Positions 1 through 18,920 of a stretch of DNA of 21,593 bases are shown piece by piece. A program made the translations under genes and the position numbers. How positions within the stretch are numbered: the first letter of the stretch is position 1; every line of letters begins with the position of its first letter. The DNA comes from Tolypothrix carrinoi HA7290-LM1 (lineage in GTDB: Bacteria > Cyanobacteriota > Cyanobacteriia > Cyanobacteriales > Nostocaceae): assembly GCA_019358935.1 (NCBI GenBank), contig JAHHIK010000130.1:1-21593 (forward strand). The letters are read 5' to 3'. A model generated the notes under the pieces. It did no database searches and had not been told where the DNA came from. It saw only the letters and a program-made list of their open reading frames with translations.

Positions 1-121
1 AGCATCTTTACGCTCAACTCTATAGCGTAATAATAGCACAAAAAGCACCACTGTGGGGTAAACCCCACGACGTGGTTTTCATCCCCGGCATGAATGCGCG
101 GGGCTTTCAACCTACCTTTTT
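1..121 (-). mobile_element. Left end of an IS200/IS605-family (IS891/IS1341-like) element; probable tnpB starts at 5 on the - strand and runs off the window
   Basis: The - strand reads TTAC|AAAAAGGTAGGTTGAAAGCCCCGCGCATTCATGCCGGGGATG: TTAC target tetramer (122-125), then a subterminal hairpin (83-103), a second hairpin GTGGGGTAAACCCCAC (53-68) and ATGCT at 5..1. This matches the usual cyanobacterial IS605-type left end. The transposase/TnpB sequence itself is not visible. Confidence 0.6.
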
Positions 122-271
122 GTAACACCGGATAGAAGTATCTACTGTAGTGATAAGAAAGTCAAAAGCCATGCTGAAGGGAACGCTTGGATTAAGACTT
201 GTGGTTTCTCTGGGAAAGCTGAACTCCGGAATACTCGACCTGATCAAGCATTAAGTTGTCCTCCTCGTTAA
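122..271 (+). pseudogene. 3' remnant (49 codons) of a small Cys-containing protein gene cut by the IS605-type insertion
   Basis: Open frame VTPDRSIYCSDKKVKSHAEGNAWIKTCGFSGKAELRNTRPDQALSCPPR* from the IS junction to TAA 269-271. HIP1 follows at 287-294. No family recognised. Confidence 0.45.
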
Positions 272-353
272 CAGGTTAAGGTTAGTGCGATCGCCTGATA
301 TTGTAGCGTGAGTTACACTTCGTTAACCCGCCATCGGTATCATTATCATTAAA

Positions 354-386
354 TTGGGTGGGTTACGCTGTCGCTAACCCACCCAA
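354..386. repeat. REP-like palindrome
   Basis: TTGGGTGGGTTA-cgctgtcgc-TAACCCACCCAA, perfect 12-bp arms. A degenerate relative lies at about 302-332. Confidence 0.7.
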
Positions 387-415
387 CGTTTTATTGCGAT
401 TACGGATCTTGTAAT

Positions 416-531
416 GCGATCGCTTTTTGTTTGATTTATTTACGGGAGAGCGATCGCTTATCTTTAGTCAGAAAGTGCGATCGCCTTTGATTTACGGGAG
501 TGCATAGGTGTAGCCCATCGTAGGCGATCGC
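416..531 (+). repeat. HIP1 tandem array 1 (4 intact GCGATCGC)
   Basis: HIP1 at 416, 450, 477 and 524 with T-rich then GA-rich linkers; SDR-like insert at 502-531. Confidence 0.85.
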
Positions 532-570
532 ACTAGATTTGCTAAACTAGAAAAACATATACTTATTATC

Positions 571-783
571 ATGTATTCAACCAGTCAACACGAACAAATT
601 CTAGAAGCGATCGCTAAACTTAGCGAACAACAAATCCAAATAGTCTTACAATTTATTCAAACTCTCCAATCCAAGCAAATCTCTAATTCACTCTCTACTC
701 CATTCGATCCACTGGCTAACTTTGTTGGAGCCACCAATCAGGGTAATCTTGCCCAAGAGATTGATGCAACGCTCTATAAGTAA
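571..783 (+). CDS. Putative antitoxin (70 aa) of a VapBC-like pair
   Basis: Short ORF overlapping the start of the PIN-domain gene; helical N-terminus (QILEAIAKLSEQQIQIVLQFIQTL) and DPLANFVG motif typical of small TA partners. Confidence 0.65.
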   Translation: MYSTSQHEQILEAIAKLSEQQIQIVLQFIQTLQSKQISNSLSTPFDPLANFVGATNQGNLAQEIDATLYK

Positions 784-1213
784 TGTAATATTTATTGATA
801 CATGGGGCTGGCTCACCCTAAATGATGCAGGTGAACGTAGACATAAAGATGTTGTCCGCTTGTATCAGACCTTAATATCTGAGAAAACACTCATTTATAC
901 CACCACATTTATTTTAGATGAGACATTCACATTATTTTTCAAACGACTCAACTCTTTCCAAGCCCAGCAAGCAATGCTTCAACTAACTGCTGCATTTTTT
1001 ACGGAACAATTTCAACTAATCCAAATTGATGAATCTCGCTTTACTCAAACCCAAATGTTGCGGTTGAAGTATCTTGATAAGCCCCAAATCTCTTTTACTG
1101 ACTTAACATCAATATTAATTATGCAAGAATTTAATATCTATAGAATCCTAACAGAAGACGCTCATTTTACTCAAGTTGGCTTGGGATTTCAACTTGAACC
1201 TGCTATTTCTTAA
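764..1213 (+). CDS. vapC: PIN-domain (VapC-like) toxin, about 149 aa
   Basis: IFIDTWGW...ILDETFT...ISFTDLTS...ILTEDAHF acidic PIN motifs. Start placed at in-frame ATG 764 rather than TTG 722. Confidence 0.85.
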   Translation: MQRSISNVIFIDTWGWLTLNDAGERRHKDVVRLYQTLISEKTLIYTTTFILDETFTLFFKRLNSFQAQQAMLQLTAAFFTEQFQLIQIDESRFTQTQMLRLKYLDKPQISFTDLTSILIMQEFNIYRILTEDAHFTQVGLGFQLEPAIS

Positions 1214-1219
1214 CTTCAA

Positions 1220-1567
1220 GTGATCGCTTTTTGGAATTTGTCAGGACGATCACTTTTTTTATGGGAGTGCGATCGCTTTGGGAATGTGGGAAGTGCGATC
1301 GCTTTCATGATGGGAGATTAGGGAGTGCGATCGCTTTGGGAATGTGGGAAGTGCGATCGCTTTTTTTATAAGAGATTGGGGAGAGCGATCGCTTTGAGGA
1401 TTTGGGAAAGGCGATCGCTTTTTTGTCGGGAGAAGGGCGATCGCCTTTATTTACAGGAGTGCGATCGCTTATCTTTAGTCAGAAAGTGCGATCGCCTTTG
1501 ATTTACGGGAGTGCGATCGCTTTGAGGATGTGGGGACTGCGATCGCCTAAATAAAAGTGGCGATCGC
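1220..1567 (+). repeat. HIP1 tandem array 2 (12 intact + 2 degenerate HIP1)
   Basis: HIP1 at 1269, 1295, 1327, 1353, 1385, 1411, 1437, 1461, 1488, 1513, 1539, 1560; degenerate copies at 1220 and 1246; unit length 21-32 bp. Confidence 0.95.
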
Positions 1568-1619
1568 TCATCAATTTTCATCCCTTAGTTGACCACTTGT
1601 AGAAAGGAGAATTTTCAAC

Positions 1620-2138
1620 ATGATAAAAATACCATATCGCTTGATTCGTAAACTAACATGTGTGTTGGCTCTTGCTGCTGTACTTGTCACCAGCTTTGTC
1701 TCACCATCTTATGCGGACAACTGTCACACTTTTACCATGTCGGCTGTCTCTGAAACAGCATCATAAACAGACAAATTTACAGCACCAGATGGATGTAAGG
1801 CAGTAACTAAAAATGGCACTAATCAGCATACCATGATTGACGCAGCTGTCTCTCAGGGTGGAACAAAGTTTAGACGAGCAAACACATGGACAGCAAATAT
1901 TCCACTTAGCGAACTGGGGATCACACCAGAGTGTTATAAGGGCTATTTCAAGTTTAATGAATACCAAGTGGACGGCACTACCTTGAGAGAGTGGTGGCAA
2001 TCTAATTTCGTGCTAGGAACATTCAAGTATTTTTACAAAAGTAATCTGCGTGAGAATACAAGCCCCAATGCTAAATACTTGTGGTTTGCCGGAGATGAAA
2101 TTCAATGGCAGAAAGGAGATGGCAAAAATTGCACCTAA
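1620..2138 (+). pseudogene. Secreted hypothetical protein (172 codons) with in-frame TAA at codon 49
   Basis: AGGAGA RBS (1605-1610), ATG 1620, signal peptide MIKIPYRLIRKLTCVLALAAVLVTSFVSPSYA|D, TAA at 1764-1766. The same frame then continues into the 1833-2138 ORF. Confidence 0.8.
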
Positions 2139-2190
2139 AACAAAGGTTGTAGTTTAATTACTCAGTATTAAACTACAACCTTTGTTTTAG
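2135..2190. terminator. Perfect 24-bp inverted repeat overlapping the stop codon (probable terminator hairpin)
   Basis: CTAAAACAAAGGTTGTAGTTTAAT-tactcagt-ATTAAACTACAACCTTTGTTTTAG. Confidence 0.7.
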
Positions 2191-2198
2191 CAATAAGC

Positions 2199-2378
2199 TA
2201 GGACTTACGCATTGACAGAAAAATCATGGTGAGGGGTATGGTTTTCTGCCCTTCTTTGTTGATTTTTCTATTCTGCACGGTTGCGATCGCAACCAATAAA
2301 AGATGGTTGATAAAAGCTTGAAACAACGTATTTCCGTTGATACACAAGATGATTCGTTTGTACAATGCGTAAGTTCTA
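2199..2378. mobile_element. MITE-like element (about 180 bp)
   Basis: Terminal inverted repeats TAGGACTTACGCATTG / CAATGCGTAAGTTCTA (15/16 match); same end motif as the element at 19829-19922; internal 16-bp palindrome GGTTGCGATCGCAACC (2279-2294). Confidence 0.7.
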
Positions 2379-2398
2379 TTCTATAAAAGCCCACACCT

Positions 2399-2761
2399 AT
2401 GCAAGTTACCTTTGATCTACCTGATGATGTTTTCGCCCAACTTCACCCCCTTGAAGACAAACTCCCTCAAATCTTAGAATTAGGGTTGCGAGAACTTAAC
2501 GCTATCACCCAAGTTGGATTTTCAGGGGTAGCTGAAGTTCTGGAATTTCTGGCTAGTCTCCCCACTCCGGAAGATATTATTGCTCTGCGACCCTCTGAAA
2601 CTCTACAAGCTCAACTCACTAACCTACTAGAGAAAAATCGCACGGTGGGCTTGACCTCAAACGAAGAACAGCTATGGCAAGGGTATCAATATCTAGAGCA
2701 TATTGTCAGAATGGCAAAGGCTAGAGCATTCTTAAAACTCAAGGAAGCTCACAGGGAATGA
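2399..2761 (+). CDS. Hypothetical 120-aa protein, putative antitoxin-like partner of the HNH nuclease
   Basis: ATGA overlap with the HNH gene; MQVTFDLPDD...EVLEFLASLPTPEDIIALRPS signature typical of HNH-associated partner genes. Confidence 0.75.
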   Translation: MQVTFDLPDDVFAQLHPLEDKLPQILELGLRELNAITQVGFSGVAEVLEFLASLPTPEDIIALRPSETLQAQLTNLLEKNRTVGLTSNEEQLWQGYQYLEHIVRMAKARAFLKLKEAHRE

Positions 2762-3173
2762 GTATGACATATATTCCCGTAGCCCTGCGAAGACAGGTTT
2801 ACGAACGAGCAAAAGGCTGTTGTGAGTATTGTCTGATTCCTGATTTAGCCGCTTTCTCTGCTCACGAGATTGACCACATCATTGCCGAAAAACATGGTGG
2901 CTTGACTGAAGCCGAAAACTTAGCTCTTTCCTGTACCTTATGCAACAAGCATAAAGGAAGCGATCTCACGTCTATCGACCCACAGACAAGCCAGATTGTA
3001 ACACTTTACCATCCTCGCCAAGACCTCTGGCATGAGCATTTTCAACTCAAAGAGGCTGAATTTGTCCCCTTATCAGCACAAGGTCGGGGACAATTCGACT
3101 ATTGCAGTTGAATCGTCGTGACAGAGTTGAGGAACGTCAACTTTTGCTACAGGCTGGAATGCTCAAAGCGTAA
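2758..3173 (+). pseudogene. HNH endonuclease with a 1-nt frameshift near 3088
   Basis: CEYC...HEIDHIIAEKHGG...NLALSCTLCNKHKG HNH/zinc motifs. After QGR the family-like tail (TIRLLQLNRRDRVEERQLLLQAGMLKA*) is in another frame ending at TAA 3171-3173; the annotated frame stops at 3111. Confidence 0.8.
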
Positions 3174-3196
3174 GTGATTAACCGGACATGATATGA

Positions 3197-3925
3197 GCGA
3201 TCGCCTTTTATTTAGGGGAGATGAGCGATCGCCTTTATTTACAGGAGTGCGATCGCTTTTTATTTATTGGAGTGCGATCGCTTTGAGGATGTGGGGAGAG
3301 CGATCGCTTTTTTATAGGAGATTGGGGAGTGCGATCGCTTTGGGGATGTAGGGAGAAGTGCGATCGCTTTTTTTGTGGGAGAGCGATCGCTTTGAGGATG
3401 TAGGGAGTGCGATCGCTTTGATTATGGGAGATTGGGGAGTGCGATCGCTTTGAGGATGTGGGGAGAGCGATCGCTTTTTTATAGGAGATTGGGGAGAGCG
3501 ATCGCTTTTGTGTAGGCAGAAGTGCGATCGCCTTTGATTTACGGGAGTGCGATCGCTTTGAGGATTTGGGGAATTTGGAAGTGCGATCGCTTTTTTTATA
3601 GGAGATTGGGGAGAGCGATCGCTTTGGGGAATTTGGAAGTGCGATCGCTTTTTTTATGGGAGATTAGGGAGTGCGATCGCTTTGGGGATGTAGAAAGGGC
3701 GATCGCTTTTTTTATGGGAGATTAGGGAGTGCGATCGCTTTGGGGATGTGGGGAGTGCGATCGCTCTTTTTATGGGAGTGCGATCGCTTTGGGGATGTAG
3801 GAAGTGCGTAGGCGAGCTTTTCGTAGACATCGCTTTGATGATGGGAAATTGGGGAGTGCGATCGCATTGGGTGGATATAGGGAGAGCGATCGCTTTGATG
3901 ATAAGAGATTGGGGAGTGCGATCGC
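3197..3925 (+). repeat. HIP1 tandem array 3 (25 intact + 1 SDR-interrupted HIP1)
   Basis: GCGATCGC every 23-34 bp from 3197 to 3918, mostly alternating about 26-bp and 31-32-bp units; the HIP1 at 3806-3833 is split by a 20-nt insert. Confidence 0.97.
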
Positions 3926-4170
3926 CTTAATAAATCTTCCCAGTCACCTTCAACGGGAAAAATTAGCCCAAAGTGCCTGGGATAGATACCGCGTTGGGAT
4001 GTTAGAGGTTCTTTGGTCATGTGCGCTACCAATTGATGACCGTAAAGATTGAGAATCAGCGCGTGCTTATTTTCGCGACCGGCAACGCAGCCAAGCCCAT
4101 CGACATAATATACCTTGGTTTGGGCAATGTCAGTAACCGGGAAAGCGAGATGAAATAAAGTTTGGCTCAT
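3712..4170 (-). pseudogene. VOC (glyoxalase/bleomycin-resistance) family protein, native sequence truncated after about 84 aa and fused to repeat-derived sequence
   Basis: FHLAFPVTDI...YYVDGLGC...LNLYGHQLVAH...PRHFGLIF VOC motifs. From the HIP1 at 3925-3918 the translation becomes repeat-coded (RSHSPIS...) and the final VOC beta-strands are missing. Confidence 0.8.
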
Positions 4171-4350
4171 AGATGGGGTTGATACTATTTACAATTTATT
4201 GTGCCTTCTTCATCCAAGGCTTCGCTGCTTTTCCCATCAAACAAAATCAGGAATGAGCGCAAAAACCCGAAAATTAGGTTAAACAACAGATGCACAAAAT
4301 TGGTAATTGTGTTAACGTTTGTTTTGCCAAAACTACAGGTGATGCATTTA

Positions 4351-5136
4351 ATGCTTTCTTTTATTTCTTCTTTAAATCCGTGGCTGGTGGGAATAGGATT
4401 GAACACAGTTTTATTGGGTGTAGCTTTTATTGCTCCCAAAAAGCTGCTTACCCCAGCTGGTTTATTGCACGCTTGGTTTCTAGGTGTCCTACTTTGGGGA
4501 ACCCTCGGCTGGCAAGGATATGTAGTAGTAATGTTCTACTTTCTTGTTGGTTCTGCGGTTACACGCATTGGTATGAAGCAAAAAGAAGCTGAAGGAATTG
4601 CCGAAAAGCGTTCTGGGGCAAGAGGTCCAGAAAACGTTTGGGGTTCAGCTTTGACGGGGGCGCTGTGTGCTTTGGCAATCGGGATAATAAATTCGGGATT
4701 TTTTCCCACTCCCCACTTTCTACTCCCCACTCCCCACTCCCTACTCCTATTAGGTTTTGTTGCCAGTTTCAGCACCAAACTTTCTGATACCTGTGCAAGT
4801 GAAGTTGGTAAAGCTTATGGTAAAAGCACCTTTTTGATTACTACACTGCAACCAGTGCCACGAGGGACAGAAGGAGCGGTAAGCTTAGAAGGAACTTTGG
4901 CTGGAATGCTTGCTTCAGCTGCGATCGCACTTTTTGCTTGGGGAGTCGGTCTGATAAATATACTCGGTGTAGTTTGGTGTATTCTGGCAGCCTTTATTGC
5001 TACTAACATAGAAAGTCTGATTGGCGCAACTTTGCAATCTAAATATACATGGTTAACTAACGAAGTAGTCAATATAGTAAATACATTAATCGGTGCGATC
5101 GCTGCAATGCTACTCGCCTTAATATGGGCAATCTAG
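4351..5136 (+). CDS. DUF92/TIGR00297 membrane protein (TMEM19/VTE6-like), about 261 aa
   Basis: Multiple TM segments; RGPENVWGSA, KLSDTCASEVGKAYG, VPRGTEGAVSLEGT, NEVVN motifs. Start placed at ATG 4351 (ATG 4342 also possible). Confidence 0.9.
   Translation: MLSFISSLNPWLVGIGLNTVLLGVAFIAPKKLLTPAGLLHAWFLGVLLWGTLGWQGYVVVMFYFLVGSAVTRIGMKQKEAEGIAEKRSGARGPENVWGSALTGALCALAIGIINSGFFPTPHFLLPTPHSLLLLGFVASFSTKLSDTCASEVGKAYGKSTFLITTLQPVPRGTEGAVSLEGTLAGMLASAAIALFAWGVGLINILGVVWCILAAFIATNIESLIGATLQSKYTWLTNEVVNIVNTLIGAIAAMLLALIWAI
4704..4748 (+). repeat. In-frame heptamer STRR (CCCCACT-type) inside the DUF92 gene
   Basis: cccactccccactttctactccccactccccactccctactcc encodes PTPHFLLPTPHSLL. Confidence 0.8.
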
Positions 5137-5542: not shown

Positions 5543-6301
5543 ATGGAAAATTCATCATTTTTGCTAGTAAATGACCAGACAATTTCTATCCAGCAAGCAG
5601 TAAAATATTTGCAAGCCTCCGGAAAACTGGGACAGTTTATGAGCGATATTCTCCGCCAGTATGTAATTGAGCAAGAAATTCGCACGCGAGAAGATATTGA
5701 CATCAGTCCGGCTTTAACCGAACAGACAATCATTGATTTTCGGCTGAAAAACAAACTCACAGACCCCCAAAGTTTCCAAGAATGGCTAAAAAATAACGGT
5801 ACAGATTACGCTACCTTTTACTCATCAGTAGCTTTAGGCTTCAAATTAGAAAGACTTAAAGCCGTAGTTACACAAGCAAAACTCCCAGAATATTTTATTG
5901 AGCGCAAAATTTATTTAGATCGAGTAGTACTTTCTCGGATAATAGTTGATAATCGAGAACTCGGTGAAGAACTGCAAATCCAAATCGAAGAAGGAGCAAG
6001 TTTTGAGGAACTGGCAAGAGAATATTCTCTTGCAGATGACAAAATAGTAAGCGGCATGATGGGACCGGTAAGTAGGGGAACGATGCCGGATATACTAAGG
6101 GCGGCTGTTGATGTGGCAAAGCCCGGACAATTGGTAGGACCGATAGAACTAGAAGGACGCTATGGTTTGTTTCGAGTAGAACAATTTCTGACCGCGTCTT
6201 TAGAAGATACTCAACTAAAGCAAGCACTACAAAATGAGTTGTTTGAGAAATGGCTAGCAGAGAAAATTCAAAAGCTGACAGTGAAGCTGCAAGTGAGCTA
6301 A
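5543..6301 (+). CDS. PpiC/parvulin-type peptidylprolyl isomerase associated with T1SS
   Basis: SFEELAREYS...GMMGPVSRGTMP...VGPIE rotamase motifs; overlaps the start of the hlyB-like gene. Confidence 0.85.
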   Translation: MENSSFLLVNDQTISIQQAVKYLQASGKLGQFMSDILRQYVIEQEIRTREDIDISPALTEQTIIDFRLKNKLTDPQSFQEWLKNNGTDYATFYSSVALGFKLERLKAVVTQAKLPEYFIERKIYLDRVVLSRIIVDNRELGEELQIQIEEGASFEELAREYSLADDKIVSGMMGPVSRGTMPDILRAAVDVAKPGQLVGPIELEGRYGLFRVEQFLTASLEDTQLKQALQNELFEKWLAEKIQKLTVKLQVS

Positions 6302-9162
6302 AACTTGGGGAAAATGAATCTTTAAAAATAAGCGTGCTAGCAACTTTACCTTGGAATCAACCTCCCCTAGGCTGGCTGACTCCCGAACAACAATCTCAAT
6401 TGCAAAATCGGTCAGAAATCCGTCGGTACAAGCTTGGGGAAAAAATCTGGTCAAAGCAAGAAGGAATTTATCAGTTCTTTATTGTTTCTGGTAAAGTCCG
6501 CTTGCGTGAGGAAGGTATCGGTACGCCGTTAGCAACCCTAGAAGCGGGGGATTGGTTTGGTGAGTTGCACTCATCCTCTGTAGATTTTAAAGCAGTAGCT
6601 GCCAGTAAAGAAGTAGTAGTAGTTCGCTGGGATAAAGCACTGTGGGCAGAATTTTCCACACCACAAATGATCGCGTTCTTTTGCGGTGAAGAGGGGGAGA
6701 CGGGGAGAGGGGGAGACGGGGAGAGGGGGAGACAAGGGGGACAAGGGGCGACGGGTGTGGGGGGACAAGGGGAGGACACTTCCGTGCGGGGGACAAAAAG
6801 CTCAGAACGTGTCCGTGGACGACAACCAGACAACCAGACAAGCAGACAAGAAGAATTTTCCGTCCTCTCGTCATCTCGCCATTCCTCCCAACCCCCCTCC
6901 GTGGGCACTCCAAAGCCCCCCATCCCCACGCCAGAAGTCTCTCCTTATGGAGACGTTGCAACAACGGAGGACACCTCCGCACAGCGCTGGCGATCCTCTC
7001 CCACTCCTCCACTCTCGTACTCCTCCACTGCTGTATCCGGTTATCCATTTGTTGCTAACTCAAACACAGCCGCTGCCTGTTTAACAATGGTGGCGCAAAA
7101 GTTAGACAATCCCTTGCAACTCGAATGGGTACAACGCCAACTCAGAGGACAACGCCCGAAAAATGTTGTGGAAGCCGCCGAAAAGCTAGGCTTTGTATTG
7201 CGGCGTTTGCAAGTAAGTTGGAGTGAATTACGTTCGTTATCTTTCCCGGCTTTGTTGCAGTGGGGTGGTGAGCAAGGGAAACAAGGAAATTGGGTGGTAG
7301 CATATGGCATGAGAGGCGATCGCCTCATTATCGCCAATCCCAAATCGCGCGATCGCACTTGTGAAGGCGTTTCGCAAGTCATAGCCGAAACAGCTTGGGA
7401 TGGACAACTTTGGCAAGTAGAAGTCATCCAGCAGCAAGAAAAATTCAACCTCAGTTGGTTCATTCCCGCAGTTTCAAAATACAAGGGATTACTCGGCGAA
7501 GTCTTGCTGGCATCTTTTACTTTGCAACTTTTGGGATTAGCAACACCGCTAATTACCCAAGTCGTCATCGATAAAGTGATGGTGCAAGAAAGTTTGCCCA
7601 CACTTGATGTGATGGCGATCGCTCTTTTGTCAGTCTCACTTTTTGAAGCAGCACTCGGCATCCTCCGGCTGTTTATCTTTACTCATACAGCTCGTCGTCT
7701 GGATCTGAGTTTATCAGCGCAGCTATTTCGCCACCTGATGCGGTTGCCTTTAGCTTATTTTGAAGCGCGACGCGTCGGCGACACAGTAGCACGAGTTCAA
7801 GAACTCGAACAAATCCGCCAGTTTCTCACAGGTACAGCATTAACTGTAATATTGGATAGCATCTTTGCCGTGGTTTACCTGGCATTGATGTTTTACTATA
7901 ATGTTCAACTTACCGCAGTCGCCTTAGCAGTACTGCCGTTGTTTGCCATATTGACAATTGTCTCAACACCAATTTTGCGAGGTTGGCTGAACGAAACATT
8001 TAACCGCAGTGCTGACAGTCAATCGTTTCTGGTAGAGACGGTGACAGGAATTCACTCAGTCAAAGCACATGCAGCCGAACGAGTAGCACGCGATCGCTGG
8101 GAAGGCTTATTTGCTCGCTTCATCCGCACAGGTTTCAAAGCCTCCACCACCTCCAACATTAGCAGCAACATCGGTGACTTTCTCACCAACTTTTCCAGCC
8201 TGCTAATACTCTGGTTTGGCGCCAAATTAGTCATCGAACAAAAACTGACCATCGGGCAGTTAGTGGCATTTCAAATGCTTTCTGGAAGGGTAACAGGACC
8301 ATTATTGCGCTTAGTCCAACTATGGCAAAATCTTCAACAAGTTCTACTTTCAGTAGACAGAATTGGTGATATTCTTAACGTTGCCCCAGAAGCTGAAGCC
8401 GGAACCGGTCTAGTTTTACCAACCCTCAAAGGAGAAGTCGCCTTTGAGCAAGTCTTTTTCCGCTACCGACAAAATACTGAACCGGTTCTGCGGGGAATCT
8501 CTTTTAACGTTCAACCAGGACAGTTTGTTGGCATTGTCGGACGGTCAGGGTCTGGTAAAAGTACTCTTTCCAAGCTGTTGCAGCGCCTTTATCAAATAGA
8601 ATCAGGACGCATCCTCATCGATGGTTTTGATATCAAAAGTGCCGATCTCGCCTCATTGCGTCAACAAATTGGGGTAGTTCTCCAAGAAGACTTTTTATTC
8701 AACGGTACCATCTTGGAAAATATCACCCTCGGCAATCCCGACATCACCGCCGAACAAGTAGTAGAAGCTGCCAGACTAGCTGTTGCCCACGATTTTATCA
8801 GTCAATTACCCTACGGCTACGAAAACAATGTTGGCGAACGTGGTACAGCTTTATCTGGTGGACAACGGCAACGTATTGCTTTAGCTCGGTTATTTCTCTC
8901 CCAAGCGCCAATTTTAATTTTAGATGAAGCTACCAGCGCCTTGGATAGTGAAACTGAACAGCAGGTTCTGCAAAACTTGCAAAAAGTTTCTAGTAACCGC
9001 ACCGTGTTTCTTATTGCCCACCGCTTTGCACCCCTCAAACGTGCCGATTTGATTTTGGTGATGGAACGTGGTGTAATTGCCGAACGTGGTACGCACTCAC
9101 AACTGTTGCAAGAAAAAGGTTTGTATTGGTCACTATATCAACGGCAGCAGGCAAATATATAA
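6250..9162 (+). CDS. hlyB: HlyB-family type I secretion ABC transporter (cNMP-binding domain + C39-like domain + TMD + ATPase)
   Basis: FFIVSGKVRL...LEAGDWFGE (cNMP); TAAACLTMV (C39-like); RRVGDTVARVQE; Walker A GRSGSGKST, LSGGQRQ, ILILDEATSALD, IAHR. Confidence 0.93.
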   Translation: MASRENSKADSEAASELKLGENESLKISVLATLPWNQPPLGWLTPEQQSQLQNRSEIRRYKLGEKIWSKQEGIYQFFIVSGKVRLREEGIGTPLATLEAGDWFGELHSSSVDFKAVAASKEVVVVRWDKALWAEFSTPQMIAFFCGEEGETGRGGDGERGRQGGQGATGVGGQGEDTSVRGTKSSERVRGRQPDNQTSRQEEFSVLSSSRHSSQPPSVGTPKPPIPTPEVSPYGDVATTEDTSAQRWRSSPTPPLSYSSTAVSGYPFVANSNTAAACLTMVAQKLDNPLQLEWVQRQLRGQRPKNVVEAAEKLGFVLRRLQVSWSELRSLSFPALLQWGGEQGKQGNWVVAYGMRGDRLIIANPKSRDRTCEGVSQVIAETAWDGQLWQVEVIQQQEKFNLSWFIPAVSKYKGLLGEVLLASFTLQLLGLATPLITQVVIDKVMVQESLPTLDVMAIALLSVSLFEAALGILRLFIFTHTARRLDLSLSAQLFRHLMRLPLAYFEARRVGDTVARVQELEQIRQFLTGTALTVILDSIFAVVYLALMFYYNVQLTAVALAVLPLFAILTIVSTPILRGWLNETFNRSADSQSFLVETVTGIHSVKAHAAERVARDRWEGLFARFIRTGFKASTTSNISSNIGDFLTNFSSLLILWFGAKLVIEQKLTIGQLVAFQMLSGRVTGPLLRLVQLWQNLQQVLLSVDRIGDILNVAPEAEAGTGLVLPTLKGEVAFEQVFFRYRQNTEPVLRGISFNVQPGQFVGIVGRSGSGKSTLSKLLQRLYQIESGRILIDGFDIKSADLASLRQQIGVVLQEDFLFNGTILENITLGNPDITAEQVVEAARLAVAHDFISQLPYGYENNVGERGTALSGGQRQRIALARLFLSQAPILILDEATSALDSETEQQVLQNLQKVSSNRTVFLIAHRFAPLKRADLILVMERGVIAERGTHSQLLQEKGLYWSLYQRQQANI
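6690..7030 (+). repeat. In-frame low-complexity repeat/SDR cluster in the hlyB linker
   Basis: GGGGAGAC/GGGGAGAG octamers, GACAACCA/GACAAGCA octamers, C-rich tracts and an SDR-like hairpin at 6929-6992. Confidence 0.8.
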
Positions 9163-9180
9163 ACGAAAAATATTTACCAT

Positions 9181-9220
9181 AAGTCTGAGCTGCACAAACT
9201 GTAGCTCAGACTTTCTCTTT
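9181..9220 (+). terminator. Rho-independent terminator after hlyB
   Basis: AAGTCTGAGCTGCA-caaac-TGTAGCTCAGACTT followed by a T-rich tract. Confidence 0.75.
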
Positions 9221-9255
9221 ATTTATCATATTTACCCTGTTAAGTAGCCATTATT

Positions 9256-9374
9256 AACTGTGCTTCTGTGAAGTCCGTAGGGTGCGCCATTCGTAGTAAC
9301 GCACCCTACATCTATCAACTGTGCTTCTGTGAAGTCCGTAGGGTGCGTTAATGTAGTAACGCACCCTACATCTA
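9256..9374. repeat. Two tandem copies (61-bp period) of a REP-like unit
   Basis: AACTGTGCTTCTGTGAAGTCC-GTAGGGTGCG...CGCACCCTAC-ATCTA at 9256 and 9317. Confidence 0.9.
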
Positions 9375-9524
9375 CTTAGCCACTTAGTTTTATTATTAAC
9401 ATAAAGATTAAGTAAAATTTTTATATTTTCTTTGTTAATTTAAGCACAAAATAATTTTTTTTTTACAAAAGAAAGCCATCATCTAATTTGATAAAATATA
9501 TACCTCCAGTACCGGATCGAAAAT

Positions 9525-11279
9525 ATGCCAGTGGATTACGCAGGCAACAGTCTAGATAAAGCTAGAAAACTTGATATTAATAGCAATGCCCAAAGTTTTA
9601 GAGATAGAGTCGATAATCTCGACCTAAATGATTTTTACAGCTTCAACCTCAGCAGTCGTAGCAGTTTTCATCTTAACCTGGATAAGTTAAAAGCAGATGC
9701 TGATGTAGCGCTGATTGGGGATGCCAACAATAATGGTCAATTTGATCAAGGGGAGGTATTAAGTGCTTCCACTCGTAGTGGTAAGCAAGCAGAATCAATT
9801 AATGAAATCTTGGGTGCAGGCAGTTATTACATACGGGTTTACCCGGATGGTAATGCAAAAACGAACTATAAGTTGACTGTCTGGGCAACACCCCTTGATG
9901 ATGCTATTAGCACCATAGTTTCTACTTCTGCTGATTTAGCAATAAATTCGACTTCTGTTAACACAGAGGTGAGTGTAGGGAGTGCGATCGCATCCGCATC
10001 TCCTACTAACAACACAAACATTGTAGCCGGAACTCTCAGGGCAGATACCTTTAATTTTCAATCTGGCTTCAACCGAACAATTTACTTTGGAAATGGTAAC
10101 GTTGACTACAGTACTGGAGCGCGAGACCTGCTCAATTTATCGCAGATTGCTTCTACTTCAGTCACAACCAACTATGCAGATAACTTAAAAGGAGGTGTAG
10201 TTTACAACGCAGGCAATGGTAATCGTTTATATGATGCCATAACATTTAGCGACGGTAGCCAAATTTTGTTTCAGGGTATTGAAAGCATTCAATTTAAAGA
10301 CAAAACCGTTAACTTATCTGTAACACCCAACGACCCTTTGTTTAATCAGCAGTGGGACTTGCAGATGACAAATGTTCACAATGCGTGGAATATTACTCAA
10401 GGTTCAGATAAAGTGGCAATTGGCATTGTAGATACAGGGTTGGCAGCCAATAGCAATGGTATTCACCCCGATCTACAACCCACCTCCACAGTGGCTGACA
10501 ACTACTTCGATGAATCGGCAACTTACTCCCACGGTACTGAAGTTGCAGGAACCATTGCTGCTGCTAGTAACAATGGTGTGGGGATAGCTGGTATTAACTG
10601 GATATCTCCTGTTGAGATAATCGATGTCATCGGTGATAACCCAGGAGATTATGATTTAGTAAAAGCTACACAGACACTGATTGATTGGGCTGGAGATCGC
10701 AAGCTGGTTGTGAACCTCAGCTTGTCTGGTGGTAACTCACCTGCATTTGAGAAACTGGTTGCTGATAACAAAGATAAAGTCTTATTTGTAATTGCATCTG
10801 GTAATCAAAACCAAAAAACAATTGCCAGTCCCGCATCATTAGCACAAAATAACGAAAATGTCCTTGCAATAGGTTCTTCTTTTGGAACTCAAGACTCGTA
10901 TGGCAATGCAAAAACACCAGGCGATCGCATCTCCTATGAAGGTTGGTGGGGTTCTAACTATGGAGAGGGTTTGACTTTAATGGCACCATCTGAGTTTATT
11001 GCTACATCTGCTACTCGTGCTGATGCATCTGCAAACTATGAGTTCGGCTACTATGACCGTTTTAATGGAACTTCAGCATCAGCAGCCGTTGTTACAGGGA
11101 TAGCTTCTTTGGTGTTGAGTGCTAATCTAAATCTCACTGCTGGACAAGTCAAGACTATTCTCTCAGAAACAGCCTACGATTTGGGTGCAGCCGGCTATGA
11201 CACGGTTTATGGCTACGGACTAGTTAATGCGGATGCTGCTGTACGACGAGCAGAAGCTCTTGACAGGGGTTTTGCTTAA
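9525..11279 (+). CDS. S8 (subtilisin-like) serine peptidase with N-terminal PPC domain
   Basis: PPC-like DFYSFNL...GSYYIRV; triad IVDTG / HGTEVAG / GTSAS; oxyanion ASGN; C-terminal YGYGLVNADAAV; no signal peptide. Confidence 0.9.
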   Translation: MPVDYAGNSLDKARKLDINSNAQSFRDRVDNLDLNDFYSFNLSSRSSFHLNLDKLKADADVALIGDANNNGQFDQGEVLSASTRSGKQAESINEILGAGSYYIRVYPDGNAKTNYKLTVWATPLDDAISTIVSTSADLAINSTSVNTEVSVGSAIASASPTNNTNIVAGTLRADTFNFQSGFNRTIYFGNGNVDYSTGARDLLNLSQIASTSVTTNYADNLKGGVVYNAGNGNRLYDAITFSDGSQILFQGIESIQFKDKTVNLSVTPNDPLFNQQWDLQMTNVHNAWNITQGSDKVAIGIVDTGLAANSNGIHPDLQPTSTVADNYFDESATYSHGTEVAGTIAAASNNGVGIAGINWISPVEIIDVIGDNPGDYDLVKATQTLIDWAGDRKLVVNLSLSGGNSPAFEKLVADNKDKVLFVIASGNQNQKTIASPASLAQNNENVLAIGSSFGTQDSYGNAKTPGDRISYEGWWGSNYGEGLTLMAPSEFIATSATRADASANYEFGYYDRFNGTSASAAVVTGIASLVLSANLNLTAGQVKTILSETAYDLGAAGYDTVYGYGLVNADAAVRRAEALDRGFA

Positions 11280-11302
11280 TCATGGTGAAATTAATGCGTA
11301 TT

Positions 11303-11332
11303 TGTAGGGACAATTCATGAATTGTCCCTACA
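11303..11332. repeat. REP-like perfect 30-bp palindrome
   Basis: TGTAGGGACAATTCATGAATTGTCCCTACA. Confidence 0.85.
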
Positions 11333-11379
11333 CGAGCGCTCGCTCATGTATTGTACACAACTCTTAAGCGCTATATATG

Positions 11380-11414
11380 CTCTGCCTTAATCTTCAGTGG
11401 AGGCAGAGTTTTTT
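11380..11414 (+). terminator. Probable intrinsic terminator
   Basis: CTCTGCCT...AGGCAGAG followed by TTTTTT. Confidence 0.5.
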
Positions 11415-11830
11415 AGTAGTTCGAGGAGTGAATGGAGCGCGATCGCAACTCCTCATAGAATCAAAACTACCTGTCACTTCAATTCAGGTAATGCATGATT
11501 TTTGCGACATAAAAAACGTTACTCTTTTCTCCTCAGTGTTTTTCCCTCTGTGGAGAAGACTGCTTTGTTGAATCAAATAATTTTAGTATAATTTATAACT
11601 TAAATTTTATAAGTTTTCCGCTTTAGTCTCAGCAATTTATCGGAAAAATATCTAACTAATAGTATTTAAAAATACGTAAATTTATCCTAGCTGTTTTGGT
11701 AGATAAAGCAGCAGTATAGAACTACGCATATTCAACTTCATTTTGAGACGTAGCTATAAAAGCTTTACAAAACACAGAGTTCAGGGTGTGTTTTGTCAAT
11801 TTATCTTGAGCATAGGACGCAGAAATATTT

Positions 11831-13927
11831 ATGCCACTTGATTCTGTCGGCAATAGTTTAAGTACAGCAAATCAGCTAAAAATTACTTCAATTAACAGTA
11901 AAGTTACAGAATGGGTTGGCACAAGCGATCCAAACGATTATTACACCTTTAATCTCAGTGGTCGTAGTAGCTTTAATCTTGCCCTTAACGATCTATCAGC
12001 GAATGCAGATGTGCAGCTGTTAGACAAAAATGGAGCCGTAGTTACAGGTTCTTATAGTGGTAGTCGCAAGGCTGAATCTATCAGCAGAACTCTAGAAACA
12101 GGTAGTTACTACATCCGAGTCAACCGAGTAGGTGGTGCGAATACTAGCTACAAACTGAGCGTTTCTGGCAACGAAGCACCGCAATTATTACAATTTGGCA
12201 CCGATAAAAGCAGCTATCAAGTAGGTGAAACTGTCAAACTTACTAACGCTACAGTATTTGATGGCAATGGTGTCAGTGACTTAGCGCAAGTAGATTTCCG
12301 ATTGCAAAAAGATGGTGGAAGCTGGGACATCATCAGCAATGCAGACAAGTTCAGCGCTGACAGCAACAGTAACCGTGCTAGCTTTAACTACAGTTTAAGT
12401 AATCTAACTGCTGGTAAATATCAGTTATGGGCGAAAGCCTACGATAAATCCGGTGGTACTAGCAACACTTACCAAACAAGCTTTAGCATTTCTGCCAACG
12501 AAGCACCGCAATCATTACAATTTGGCACCGATAAAAGCAGCTATCAAGTAGGCGAAACTGTCAAACTTACCAACACTCAAATATTTGATGGTAATGGTGT
12601 CAGTGACTTAGCGCAAGTAGAGTTCCGATTGCAAAAAGATGGTGGAAGTTGGGACATCATCAGCAATGTGGATAAATTCAGCGCTCAAGGCAGCGATAAC
12701 CGCAATGCTAGCTTTAACTATGCGATTAGCGGTCTAAGTAATGGTAAATATCAGTTGTGGGCACGAGGATACGATCAATCCGGTGCTACTAGTAACACTT
12801 GGCAAACAAGCTTTAGCATTTTGCAACCGACTCCTGTAGTTGCCGATCCTGGGGATTGGTTTGACCAGAATATTCAGGATAGTGGTATACGTGCAGCGAC
12901 AAGGTTGCGTTTTGCTGATAACGTGTTAGACCGCAACGATATTATTAGCATCTTGCGTGAAGCTAAAGATAACAGTGTAGTTTATGCTACAGAAGTTAAA
13001 GACCTTCGCACTTTAGTTAGCAATGCCTCTTACTTAAAAATTCCCGAACATGTCCGCGTTTTGGCTAACAAAGTTGTTAACGGTGATGTTGCTAATCAAA
13101 AGTATCAAAGTAATACACTGGGTAACTTGGATGCTGGTAGTAGTGACGTGCAGTTGGAGAACTTAATTAGTAAGTGGTTTTATGGTGGCGATCGCCCAAC
13201 AACTTCCTACACTTATCAATATGCTAGTGGTTCTCTGTTCCAAAATGGCATCAGTTATCAAGACATAAAACAAGGTGTGATTAATGACTGCTACTTATTA
13301 GCAGGTTTAGCAGAAACGGCTTTCCGTTCACCCAGCACAATTGAAAATATGTTTATTGATAACGGTGATAATACTTTCACCGTGCGTTTCTGGCAAAATG
13401 GGGTAGCTGACTATGTGACAGTAGACAGATATTTACCAACCACTGATACAGGGTATTTAGCTTATGCAAATAAGGGGAATTACTATAATAATTCTACGAA
13501 TGAATTATGGGTAACTCTTGCCGAAAAAGCTTATGCCCAACTCAATGAATCTGGATGGATTTATCAAGATAATACCAATTCTTACAAGGGTATTAGTCAT
13601 GGTGGATATATGAGTGATGCTTTTGCACAAATCACCGGACGTAATGTTTCTAGTTTTAACGTTCTTGACTTTAACTCAATAGTCAATGCGTTTAATTCCG
13701 GTCAATTAATTGGGTTAGCGACTTTAGGAACTGGAGTTGCATCAAATATCCTCACCGATCATGGTTATGCACTGGTTGATTACAATTCCTCTACTCAAAA
13801 GTTTACTCTTTTCAACCCTTGGGGAATCGATAACGGCTCCTCAAAACCGGGCATCCTAGAATTGGCTTGGAATGAAATTGCAAGCAACTTTAGTTATTGG
13901 GATTCTACAAAAACTATATCAACTTAG
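11831..13927 (+). CDS. Calpain-like (C2 family) cysteine protease with PPC domain and two tandem beta-rich repeats
   Basis: QGVINDCYLLAGL (catalytic Cys), LAEKAYAQ, HGYALV (His), FNPWG (Asn); N-terminal PPC; duplicated 109-aa module; no signal peptide. Confidence 0.88.
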   Translation: MPLDSVGNSLSTANQLKITSINSKVTEWVGTSDPNDYYTFNLSGRSSFNLALNDLSANADVQLLDKNGAVVTGSYSGSRKAESISRTLETGSYYIRVNRVGGANTSYKLSVSGNEAPQLLQFGTDKSSYQVGETVKLTNATVFDGNGVSDLAQVDFRLQKDGGSWDIISNADKFSADSNSNRASFNYSLSNLTAGKYQLWAKAYDKSGGTSNTYQTSFSISANEAPQSLQFGTDKSSYQVGETVKLTNTQIFDGNGVSDLAQVEFRLQKDGGSWDIISNVDKFSAQGSDNRNASFNYAISGLSNGKYQLWARGYDQSGATSNTWQTSFSILQPTPVVADPGDWFDQNIQDSGIRAATRLRFADNVLDRNDIISILREAKDNSVVYATEVKDLRTLVSNASYLKIPEHVRVLANKVVNGDVANQKYQSNTLGNLDAGSSDVQLENLISKWFYGGDRPTTSYTYQYASGSLFQNGISYQDIKQGVINDCYLLAGLAETAFRSPSTIENMFIDNGDNTFTVRFWQNGVADYVTVDRYLPTTDTGYLAYANKGNYYNNSTNELWVTLAEKAYAQLNESGWIYQDNTNSYKGISHGGYMSDAFAQITGRNVSSFNVLDFNSIVNAFNSGQLIGLATLGTGVASNILTDHGYALVDYNSSTQKFTLFNPWGIDNGSSKPGILELAWNEIASNFSYWDSTKTIST
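12170..12820 (+). repeat. Intragenic tandem duplication, 327-bp period
   Basis: AACGAAGCACCGCAAT... starts at 12170 and 12497; the copies are highly similar at DNA level. Confidence 0.9.
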
Positions 13928-13981
13928 AATATCGTGGGGCGTTGCGCGTACAAAGCCTTCCAAAGCGCAGGCTTTTAGACA

Positions 13982-14187
13982 TTACGGCGATTTTCAGTTG
14001 AGTAGACTACAAGAAAAAACCTAACCCCCTACCCCCTTCCCTACTAGGGAAGGGGGAAATTCAAAGCCTCTCCAGTAATAAAAGCTGCTCCTCTTCCCTC
14101 CCCTTGTAGGGGAGGGTTAGGGAGAGGTAGGAGAGAGGTTTACCAGAGAGGTCTGCGTGTAGTTTATTCATTTGAAAACTGCTGTAA
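13982..14187. mobile_element. MITE-like element (about 206 bp) with nested G/C-rich hairpins
   Basis: Imperfect 30-bp TIRs TTACGGCGATTTTCAGTTGAGTAGACTACA / TGTAGTTTATTCATTTGAAAACTGCTGTAA (23/30); internal CCCCCTTCCCTACTAGGGAAGGGGG and CCCTCCCCTTGTAGGGGAGGG hairpins. Confidence 0.65.
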
Positions 14188-14478
14188 GTCCTTGTCATGC
14201 GGACGAGCGTTTTTGTAGCCGCGACTTTATCGGGTAATGAGTTTTGTATCTATCTAATTTGTTAGTTATTAAATATACAAATAAAGACTTTATTAAAATA
14301 TTTTTTTAATGACAATTGTTACTTGCATATTCTTGTTTGTAAGCAAATTGGCATTTTCACATTTCAATTCATAGTAATTATTGGCAAAGGGAAGTAATTT
14401 CTTTTTAAAACCTTGGCAGAAAGGTTTTAACAGCTTGTGCTGTCAAAAAAACTTGATACATATTAGGAAATAAGACTT

Positions 14479-15981
14479 ATGAAAATTGATTCTCATAACA
14501 ACAATTATTATTATGATAACAAGCTTAATTTCACTCCTATATCCTCAGTAGATTCCTTTAATCAAAAGGATGATTACAACTTTCGTTTTGGCAGTCACAG
14601 CAGCTTGAATACAGCGAAAAATGACGTGCAGATGCTCGATTCGTCTACTACTGCTTATAGTGAAAACTATAACTATACTGATGGCTATGGTTTAATTAAT
14701 GCCGCAGATGCAGTGAGTAAAGCTGCTGGTAAGAAGACTTTTGCTGATGTTCCTAACCTTGGTGGCAATAATTGGGGTGCTGACCTTGTAAAAGCGCCGT
14801 CAGCGTGGGCGACGGGATACACTGGTAAGGGTGTTGTGGTTGCAGTGGTGGATACTGGGGTTGACCGCAACCATGACGACTTAAAAGATAATATCTGGAC
14901 TAATAGTAAAGAAATTCCTAACAACGGCAAAGATGATGACGGCAATGGTTATGTTGATGATGTTTACGGTTGGAATTTTGACGGCAACGATAACAACACT
15001 TTAGATGTAGCCGGTCATGGCACTCATGTTTCTGGTACTATTGCTGGAGAGAACAACAACTTTGGTGTGACTGGCATTGCCTATGATGCTTATATTATGC
15101 CAGTCAAAGTTCTAGATGACTCTGGTAGTGGTTCTTATGATGCGATCGCACAGGGTATTCGTTATGCTGCGGACAATGGAGCCAATGTCATCAACTTAAG
15201 CTTAGGTGGCGATTATCCTGACAGCGGTCTAGAATCAGCTTTGAAATATGCTAGCAGCAAAGGAGCGATCGTTGTCATGGCAGCGGGTAATGAGAGTGGC
15301 TTCCAACCAGGATACCCTGCCCATTACGCAGACGAAACCGGAATTGCTGTTGGTGCTGTCGATAATAAAAATAATTTGGCTAGCTTCTCTAATCTAGCTG
15401 GATTTAACCCGCTCACCTACGTCACAGCTCCAGGAGTCGATGTCTACTCGACACTTCCGGGTAACAAATATGCTTTTTATAGTGGCACATCGATGGCAAG
15501 TCCTCACGTTGCTGGTGTAGTAGCCTTGATGTTAAGTGCTAACCCTAATTTAACAGATGCTCAAGTGCGTCAAATTCTCGAAGATACTTCTGGAAATAGT
15601 ACACAAGCTGCAAATTCTAACTTCAGCTTAAATTCTGCAACTCAGAGCGATCGACTGGTTGCAAATATATCTACTACCTCATTTGAATCTTCCCCCGAAA
15701 TTGCCGACGACTTTTTGCAAAGTTTTAGCAGTGGAATTGAAAGTAATTCTATAAATTTTTTCCCAAGTTACAAGCCGGCAACTTTCAGCTTCACCGATAG
15801 TTCTATTCAAGATAATGAAATGTTGATACCACAATTCGGGTTACAATCCCAATATTATCAGGATATTTTCAGCATCAATAGCTTTGACGATGCTGTTGTT
15901 GAAAACATATTAAAACAACCAAAAACACAAATCGAAGAGTATCGCGATTGGTTGTTTGATATCAATTCAGAAATAGTTTAG
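14479..15981 (+). CDS. S8 (subtilisin-like) serine peptidase
   Basis: VVAVVDTG, DDDGNGYVDD Ca-binding loop, HGTHVSG, AAGNE, SGTSMASPHVAG; Ser/Asn/Phe-rich C-terminal tail; no signal peptide. Confidence 0.92.
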   Translation: MKIDSHNNNYYYDNKLNFTPISSVDSFNQKDDYNFRFGSHSSLNTAKNDVQMLDSSTTAYSENYNYTDGYGLINAADAVSKAAGKKTFADVPNLGGNNWGADLVKAPSAWATGYTGKGVVVAVVDTGVDRNHDDLKDNIWTNSKEIPNNGKDDDGNGYVDDVYGWNFDGNDNNTLDVAGHGTHVSGTIAGENNNFGVTGIAYDAYIMPVKVLDDSGSGSYDAIAQGIRYAADNGANVINLSLGGDYPDSGLESALKYASSKGAIVVMAAGNESGFQPGYPAHYADETGIAVGAVDNKNNLASFSNLAGFNPLTYVTAPGVDVYSTLPGNKYAFYSGTSMASPHVAGVVALMLSANPNLTDAQVRQILEDTSGNSTQAANSNFSLNSATQSDRLVANISTTSFESSPEIADDFLQSFSSGIESNSINFFPSYKPATFSFTDSSIQDNEMLIPQFGLQSQYYQDIFSINSFDDAVVENILKQPKTQIEEYRDWLFDINSEIV

Positions 15982-16025
15982 AAAAATGTCCAAAAATTAA
16001 CAGTAATAAAAACATACCTACCGTC

Positions 16026-16055
16026 GTAGAGACGTTCCACACCGAACGTCTCTAC
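16026..16055. repeat. REP-like palindrome between convergent genes
   Basis: GTAGAGACGTTC-cacacc-GAACGTCTCTAC. Confidence 0.8.
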
Positions 16056-16114
16056 AGTATATGTGATTTGCGCTCCCACGATATGAGAAGCTGCGCGTCT
16101 TTGCACCCCCAATT

Positions 16115-17621: not shown

Positions 17622-17780
17622 TGGTTAGGTGTTAGTTGTTAGTTGTTAGTTGTTAGTTGTTAGTTGTTAGTTGTTAGTTGTTAGTTATTAGTTGTTAGTT
17701 GTTGTTTTAATAACCACGCTCCCACTATCTACTATCCACTATCAACTATCAACTATCAACTATCCACTAACAACTAACCA
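17622..17780. repeat. Heptamer STRR tracts (GTTAGTT)n and (CAACTAT/CCACTAT)n in opposite orientation
   Basis: About 10 GTTAGTT units at 17630-17700 and about 8 C(A/C)ACTA(T/A) units at 17722-17777. Confidence 0.9.
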
Positions 17781-18672: not shown

Positions 18673-18749
18673 GTGTTGGGTGTTGGTGGTTGGGTGTTGG
18701 GTGTTGGGCAATGGGCAATGGGCAATGGGCAATGGGCAATGGGCAATGG
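18673..18749. repeat. Heptamer STRR tract (TGGGTGT / TGGGCAA)n
   Basis: TGGGCAA repeated about six times, preceded by TGGGTGT units. Confidence 0.9.
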
Positions 18750-18790
18750 GAATAAAGCCAAATTTCGATCAATGCCCACTTGGACGCTTG

Positions 18791-18920
18791 CCCCATGCCC
18801 CATGACGGCAGGTGCTACAACGGAGGGAACCTCCGCAACGCACTGCCTCCCCCATGCCCCATGACGGCAGGTGCTACAACGGAGGGAACCTCCGCAACGC
18901 ACTGCCTCCCCCATGCCCCA
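18791..18920. repeat. Tandem 59-bp duplication of an SDR-like hairpin embedded in CCCCATG heptamers
   Basis: CCCCATGCCCCATGACGGCAGGTGCTACAACGGAGGGAACCTCCGCAACGCACTGCCTC at 18791 and 18850. Confidence 0.9.

Follow-up and report, generated by a model that had tools for sequence, protein, structure and literature searches.

Polar HIP1 arrays and shuffled toxin–antitoxin cassettes in an accessory-gene island of the cyanobacterium Tolypothrix carrinoi

Introduction

What are dense, one-directional arrays of the highly iterated palindrome HIP1 (GCGATCGC, 8 bp) doing between small accessory genes, and do they take part in moving those genes? The question is raised by the window, a stretch of 21,593 nucleotides that forms the start of a contig of Tolypothrix carrinoi HA7290-LM1 (JAHHIK010000130.1, here C130 of the source genome G000) and begins at the contig end. 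The function of HIP1 is still described as open in passages of PMC5861425 and PMC13756078. A sequence-only reading of the window had proposed an integron-like array of gene cassettes delimited by HIP1 repeats. Here, we find arrays, variable and permuted cargo, a polarity that is kept, and several joints that are exact at HIP1. The arrangement is real, family-wide, and apparently undescribed, and genome comparison provides good evidence of HIP1-associated cassette shuffling. The reading that we prefer, with a probability of roughly 55%, is that host recombination crosses over in HIP1, with polar flanks orienting the product, probably on transforming DNA.

The HIP1 arrays of the window

Counting exact copies, the window holds 60 HIP1 sites, of which 44 lie in 287–3925 and 16 in the remaining 17.7 kb. 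Relative to a genome background of 0.99 per kb, this is an approximately 12-fold enrichment in 287–3925; the shuffled control, with a mean of 0.15 HIP1, is not the fair comparison here. The genome's largest HIP1 cluster (22 copies) and its second largest (12 copies) both lie inside the window. As the sequence-only reading had held, the arrays are thus real and their units share one polarity, with HIP1 followed by a T-run and a purine-rich end preceding the next HIP1. The units measure 21–34 bp in these arrays, slightly wider than the 25–32 bp first given. Array 1 (416..531, + strand) has four exact sites and a split-HIP1-like unit at 502–531; array 2 (1220..1567, + strand) has 12 exact sites and degenerate copies from 1220; and array 3 (3197..3925, + strand) has 25 exact sites, some of them in 58-bp dimers. 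Upstream of these, a single HIP1 (287–294) with an inverted repeat that we take to be REP-like (repetitive extragenic palindromic) occupies 287..384, with no strand assigned, and is common to genome G006 up to the first array HIP1. Homology to G006 then stops at the HIP1 of 416–423, beyond which the units of the two orthologous arrays differ.

Only 8 bp are constant in the units. The spacers are 13–26 nt long, polar, and C-poor; they resemble one another, and 278 of 317 are distinct. Across the polar arrays of the studied loci (262 spacers), their median length is 19 nt, with 2.7% C on one strand. The arrays do not match the CRISPR plan, in which a long constant repeat alternates with unrelated spacers, and Rfam gave no match in four array loci. 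Exact direct repeats of 30–61 bp are found within and between the arrays; among them, a 54-bp perfect repeat on the + strand (450..503 and 1461–1514) brackets the cassette with the PIN toxin gene. Together with the dimers, the exact repeats of up to 61 bp point to slippage or unequal exchange, and slippage probably explains part of the array length. In folding analysis, neighbouring HIP1s pair in single-stranded DNA (z −5 to −8), and this pairing is the sole strong fold because the spacers are nearly C-free on one strand. The folding recalls attC, but it follows trivially from repeated palindromes. Long open reading frames (ORFs) also traverse the arrays, which we read as probable by-products of the repeats.

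Further arrays with different unit sequences occur elsewhere in the genome (C103 1454–2502, C57 14869–14970, and C22 42592–42831) and likewise adjoin small accessory genes. The start of C129 (L033 1–372), again at a contig end, carries a 142-bp tandem repeat with three HIP1 per copy.

Cassette order is permuted while direction is kept

Nine islands, eight of them at an anchor gene that we take to be chlH-like, and eight cassette families make up the set used to study shuffling. Among the 17 cassette pairs seen at least twice, 11 are found in both orders, and all 43 of 43 shared blocks follow array polarity, counts that are non-independent as the genomes are kin. Each cassette family holds one orientation relative to the local array, five running against it and three with it. 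Moreover, two families keep their array-relative direction in islands of opposite polarity across the anchor. To this extent, the integron-like behaviour first proposed is borne out, with order permuted and direction kept; the remainder of that proposal is considered below. As a separate observation, the arrays flanking the chlH-like gene (L099, L105, and L112) have opposite polarity and point away from it, as if the anchor set the direction.

Joints at HIP1

One joint lies at the right edge of array 3, where a VOC/glyoxalase 5′ fragment (3918..4170, − strand) is cut at its own internal HIP1, which is at the same time the last HIP1 of the array. This fragment is identical at 250 of 259 bases to a full copy on another contig of the same genome (C50 7996–8426), and from the VOC-internal HIP1 onward the window aligns continuously with G001, a genome in which the site is empty. 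The DNA upstream of the VOC gene matches G001 in the window (151/168), while that of the C50 copy matches the island-bearing genome G008 (87/98). The simplest history would be the entry of a G008-type island into a G001-type site through two crossovers, one of them in homologous DNA and the other at HIP1; a circle closed at HIP1 would, on inserting, yield the same product. An assembly artefact was considered and rejected: 9 of 259 bases distinguish the two copies, and a contig of run X1 spans 3720–3946, with 29 letters on the VOC side (under the 31-letter rule) and with the proviso that X1 may be the source sample. The mosaic pattern of the two VOC copies was also compared and is uninformative.

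Comparable joints are seen elsewhere. A genome of another genus, G186, carries a PIN cassette copy with 96% identity, and the homology between the two ends in the HIP1 position 1220–1227, 6 nt past the stop; in 3 of 3 non-source runs, PIN homology ends at 1225. An HTH cassette starts at the same HIP1 in G000, G004, G008, and L148. In G008, a toxin–antitoxin (TA) gene of RelE/Gp49 type breaks off at a near-HIP1 within its own sequence, where an array unit takes over; this joint and that of the VOC gene have nothing but the HIP1 core in common. As the genic joints show, one end may need no more than the core. The polarity that is kept needs either the flanks or a second, homologous crossover, because a palindromic core alone would insert either way. 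Away from the arrays, over 1.2 Mb of G001 and G006 compared with G000, a solitary HIP1 edge marks 8 of 412 block ends, with about 1.2 expected as estimated from genome HIP1 density; therefore, the host makes such joints anyway. HIP1-precise joints would accordingly represent a minor host-wide process that is more frequent in islands.

Cargo and distribution of the arrays

The window probably forms the right-hand part of a larger island, which runs on beyond an insertion sequence (IS) into contig C50 on the reverse strand, the join lying in the unassembled IS gap. C50 begins with the other end of the IS and carries two further arrays of the same polarity together with a Gp49/RelE-HTH pair on the opposite strand. 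Hence, the four modules that had been placed on the + strand are co-oriented within the window but not in the island as a whole. C50 also holds a DsbA fragment, a 138-aa secreted-type gene, a TPR gene, a sigma factor, a broken TnpB element, and the full VOC gene. The 3′ end of the TPR gene with about 200 bp is repeated before successive secreted-protein genes, which differ between genomes (C50 = L031 300–520 and 2910–3110; L094, L041, and L095). These TPR-end repeats may constitute a second, homology-based route of cassette swapping tied to the sigma-TPR module.

On the right, the island is anchored by a conserved DUF92 gene (4348..5136, + strand; PF01940), which is found in 40 of 41 genomes. 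That cassette content should vary at the DUF92/VOC locus was a prediction that held: in eight same-genus genomes with the two genes linked, two sites are empty, one has a short insert, and five carry different cargo. G008, for instance, shares the sigma-TPR module with arrays but carries other TA cassettes. More broadly, a search of 301 family genomes for a two-unit pattern was positive in 31 of them and in 15 of 68 genera, with none for the reversed control. Loosening the pattern gave 23 positive genomes among 401 of the phylum, comprising G000, 16 of 45 others of the family, six in other families of the order, and none beyond, in a scan where many small genomes outside the order may lack HIP1. 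When all species genomes were scanned, 18 loci were returned, all titled cyanobacteria. The arrays sit at several unrelated loci, among small accessory genes.

Of 112 array-adjacent proteins listed from the gene calls of a simple in-house caller, 92 were scanned, near-duplicates being left out; 55 of these have a Pfam match, 35 of which are to TA toxin or antitoxin families, and two proteins are transposase-type. Stops facing an array lie at a median of 31 nt from the nearest site (29/58 within 30 nt; genome control 21/549) and starts at a median of 86 nt (1/53 within 30 nt; genome control 16/553), where only the stop-versus-start contrast is a fair comparison, the genes having been picked for nearness to arrays. 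In the window itself, the short distances of stops and starts to HIP1 that the sequence-only reading reported all agree with the sequence.

How the cassettes may move

In the reading that we prefer, the polar HIP1 arrays would be the recombination landing pads of an accessory-gene island. Its cassettes would be short DNA segments ending in HIP1 units, mostly TA pairs with enough space for promoters of their own, or secreted-protein genes. Active crossover in the HIP1 core by the host machinery, presumably on DNA that entered by natural transformation, would swap these cassettes; ComEC and DprA are intact in this genome. The direction would be fixed by the similar one-directional flanks of the units, or by a long stretch of homology that anchors the far end of the incoming DNA. 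Repeated exchange and slippage would then lengthen and scramble the arrays, and TA addiction would help the cassettes to persist. Excision of smtB was reportedly described by Gupta in 1993, and Robinson (1997) and Akiyama (1998) are said to have described HIP1-mediated recombination. Two points from the literature count for the preferred reading: passages of PMC13756078 cite the excision of smtB between HIP1 sites, and passages of bioRxiv 2024.09.10.611283 report that, in a unicellular strain, transformed DNA was integrated more often when it carried HIP1.

In favour of this reading, island block ends fall inside an exact HIP1 in 36 of 339 cases, against 3.4 (any position) or 10.1 (intergenic) expected, a result that the masking of arrays biased towards array edges and in which many ends reflect divergence or paralogues. 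Several observations weigh against it, beginning with the kinship of the genomes behind the permutation counts. While the breakpoints lie exactly at HIP1 in several instances, as predicted (VOC, G008, and PIN), only 24 of 305 pairwise island block ends are HIP1-precise in both partners, most ends lying elsewhere. Genome-wide, none of 63 clean indels has a HIP1 where the site is empty, with 1.5 expected, and HIP1 was rejected as a general target of clean insertions. Truncations and fusions away from HIP1 are also seen (the G004 HTH gene and the G269 and G205 fusions), and four rows show the opposite orientation (three from L146, one from L109), involving more distant copies or mixed arrays. The expectation that distant cassette homologues would likewise be array-flanked fell short: only 1 of 16 PIN and 1 of 16 HNH homologues are followed by an array, and two more HNH homologues by a single HIP1. 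Finally, no excised or skipping joint was found in the assembled contigs of X1, which drop rare forms. Two loci carry fused or truncated TA cassettes with non-HIP1 joints (L108 16311–16683 and L106 11261–11832).

The strict polarity and the very short stop-to-site distances would also be expected of an unlinked, dedicated site-specific recombinase that reads a polar extended site made up of the purine-rich flank, HIP1, and the T-run, or a single-stranded HIP1–HIP1 hairpin, with IntI-like excision and insertion. We consider this unlikely. The HIP1–HIP1 pairing as the only strong fold, with nearly C-free spacers, would suit such an enzyme, and site-specific recombination at HIP1 is cited in passages of PMC4390886; however, the trivial origin of the folding and the VOC and G008 joints, with only the HIP1 core in common, speak against it. 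Likewise, neither an integrase nor a resolvase is present among the 92 array-adjacent proteins. The sequence-only reading had seen no recombinase in the window, and this stands; to the left, where it had suggested that one be sought, no tyrosine or serine recombinase was found in C50 1–8900, the IS gap between C50 and C130 being unassembled. G000 has 20 PF00589 matches, none on C130 and one on C50 about 29 kb beyond the VOC gene, and the resolvase match closest to the island is a gene of IS type that lies beyond it, at C50 12372. RAYT-like (REP-associated, Y1-type) transposase genes do lie at three of 33 loci (L099 7994–8638, L108 3605–4249, and L111 8480–9046), but they were not found in G000 or in the 1.2 Mb background, and we rejected them as the driver.

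Plain RecA-dependent or slippage recombination between similar repeats, with HIP1 at the joints merely as the most conserved part of the unit, would produce the polarity naturally. It is in keeping with the exact 30–61 bp direct repeats, including the 54 bp around the PIN cassette, and with the 58-bp dimers. Nevertheless, we regard it as quite unlikely to be the whole account, as it leaves the start of arrays at unrelated loci unexplained and does not accommodate either the joints to genic HIP1 or near-HIP1 (VOC and G008), which have no other shared sequence, or the HIP1-edge joints outside arrays.

More improbable still is a passive role, with the arrays as mere scars, or products of slippage, in neutral islands whose genes came otherwise. 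The same TA families do exist elsewhere without arrays, several cargo genes are broken, and IS and MITE-like elements also gather in the island. Against this, close copies end at HIP1 in independent strains, and the fixed direction under permuted order, which extends to the two cassettes in opposite-polarity islands, already largely refutes the idea. Lastly, a classical integron array with a lost integrase, that is, a CALIN (attC cluster without an integron-integrase), can hardly be credited despite the TA and secreted cargo, the stops near the repeat, and the shuffled order, since IntI (TIGR02249) had no match above cut-off in 5 of 5 genomes, the attC cores RYYYAAC and GTTRRRY were each found 0 times in three arrays (a + strand motif scan with no covariance model), runs of units are empty, and genes lie on both strands, 56 with and 62 against array polarity.

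Relation to known systems

On these features of integrase, attC core, and gene direction, the system appears not to be an integron. It resembles integrons and CALIN (Cury et al., 2016, PMC4889954, in the passages at hand) in having TA-rich small genes between repeated sites, a shuffled order, and stops near the site, but differs in its runs of empty units and in that its genes occupy both strands and have space for promoters of their own; no attI or Pc was identified. The reports of HIP1-mediated recombination, as with smtB, share the precise HIP1 joints, but they concern single events or plasmid assays, whereas here HIP1 is stacked in polar arrays that organize cargo.

The closest analogue, to judge from passages of Bentley et al. 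(2007, PMC1797815), is provided by the neisserial intergenic mosaic element (NIME) arrays of Neisseria, composed of dRS3 and RS spacers. In both, a short conserved palindromic repeat alternates with variable spacers, and syntenic arrays vary in length. The same passages propose that NIME arrays favour recombination with DNA entering the cell, of whose two crossovers one would fall at the repeat while RecA makes the second, and that repeated exchange lets the arrays grow. This remains an analogy only: the NIME repeat is the 20-bp dRS3, as opposed to a genome-wide 8-bp HIP1 with 13–26 nt polar C-poor spacers; NIME concern alleles of flanking surface genes, as opposed to whole TA cassettes that are gained, lost, and reordered; and no phage recombinase candidate was seen here. 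Homology-facilitated illegitimate recombination, as outlined in parts of PMC6382021, combines a homologous anchor with a short microhomology and fits the VOC junction, except that the microhomology here is a specific recurring palindrome.

The SDR5 elements of Nostocaceae are reportedly described by Elhai (2008). A split HIP1 in array 3 (3806..3833, + strand), with a 20-nt insert between HIP1 bases 3 and 4, is SDR5-like; the approximately 20-nt SDR5 inserts mentioned in passages of PMC4390886 lie between the same bases and match by position, but SDR5 is a passenger of HIP1 sites and not the array unit here. Literature searches turned up no account of TA cassettes set among polar HIP1 arrays, though Elhai (2008) or its supplements could hold one.

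Significance

More speculatively, these islands might represent an undescribed platform that parallels integrons in function. Its recombination sites would be the polar HIP1 units, perhaps folded as single-stranded HIP1–HIP1 hairpins with an unstructured loop, and an enzyme of the host, or an unlinked one, would insert, excise, and reorder the TA and secreted-protein cassettes there across genera. We offer this as a tentative possibility. If true, it would give HIP1 a concrete role in gene capture. The islands provide natural, base-precise HIP1 junctions and a ready substrate, so that the question of HIP1 as a crossover site becomes directly testable. They also suggest a route by which TA modules could pass between cyanobacterial genera without an integrase, and the arrays may offer an orientation-fixed landing pad for engineering.

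Cassettes and other features of the window

The window opens with the end of an IS605-type multicopy element (1..121, − strand), which breaks the contig; positions 1–125 are common to 10 other contig ends, and we assign the family presumptively, from end motifs like those of IS608-type elements. It splits an 89-aa secreted-type gene, whose C-terminal half lies at 122..271 (+ strand) and N-terminal half at C50 126–245; the halves align to bases 125–270 and 1–120, respectively, of the intact G006 allele (L094 9196–9465). Next come a putative antitoxin (571..783, + strand), with a weak DUF2281 match (E 0.004, below cut-off) and a role suggested by its place before PIN, and the PIN/VapC toxin (764..1213, + strand). 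The latter identity, first proposed from the sequence, is upheld by VapC20 similarity (E 9e-8) and by PIN clusters in the Atlas at 0.98, Pfam having missed it.

The orphan gene at 1620..2138 (+ strand) has a signal-peptide-like start, from which its product is probably secreted, and an in-frame stop at codon 49. It has no convincing relative in 300 family genomes (one match of E 9e-4, with stops) and none in the Atlas. A long terminator-like inverted repeat at 2137–2188 follows it directly. A 180-bp MITE-like element (2199..2378, no strand assigned) with 13-bp inverted ends comes next, and 2300–2380 recurs in many family genomes. It contains a single HIP1, at 2283, and is not an array; accordingly, the claim that arrays separate the modules holds elsewhere but not between the secreted-protein gene and the HNH pair. 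The cassette beyond this element is common to other strains only from 2383. It consists of a putative antitoxin (2399..2761, + strand), which has no Pfam match and accompanies HNH in relatives, and an HNH endonuclease gene (2758..3173, + strand; PF01844, E 3e-13), as the sequence-only reading had it, frameshifted near 3088 with a first stop at 3111. The breaks in the secreted-protein gene and in HNH are also present in run X1. The cassettes probably have their own promoters; a promoter and terminator scan was at chance level (9 vs 7.9).

To the right of DUF92, 5543–17611 holds a rotamase gene among ORFs resembling a type I secretion cluster, namely an ABC-transporter-like ORF, three protease-like ORFs, and an HlyD-like ORF, which, the rotamase excepted, we label presumptively from their sequence. 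Heptamer tandem repeats, one of them within DUF92, and a 59-bp exact duplication occur at 4705–4747, 17624–17780, and 18673–18920.

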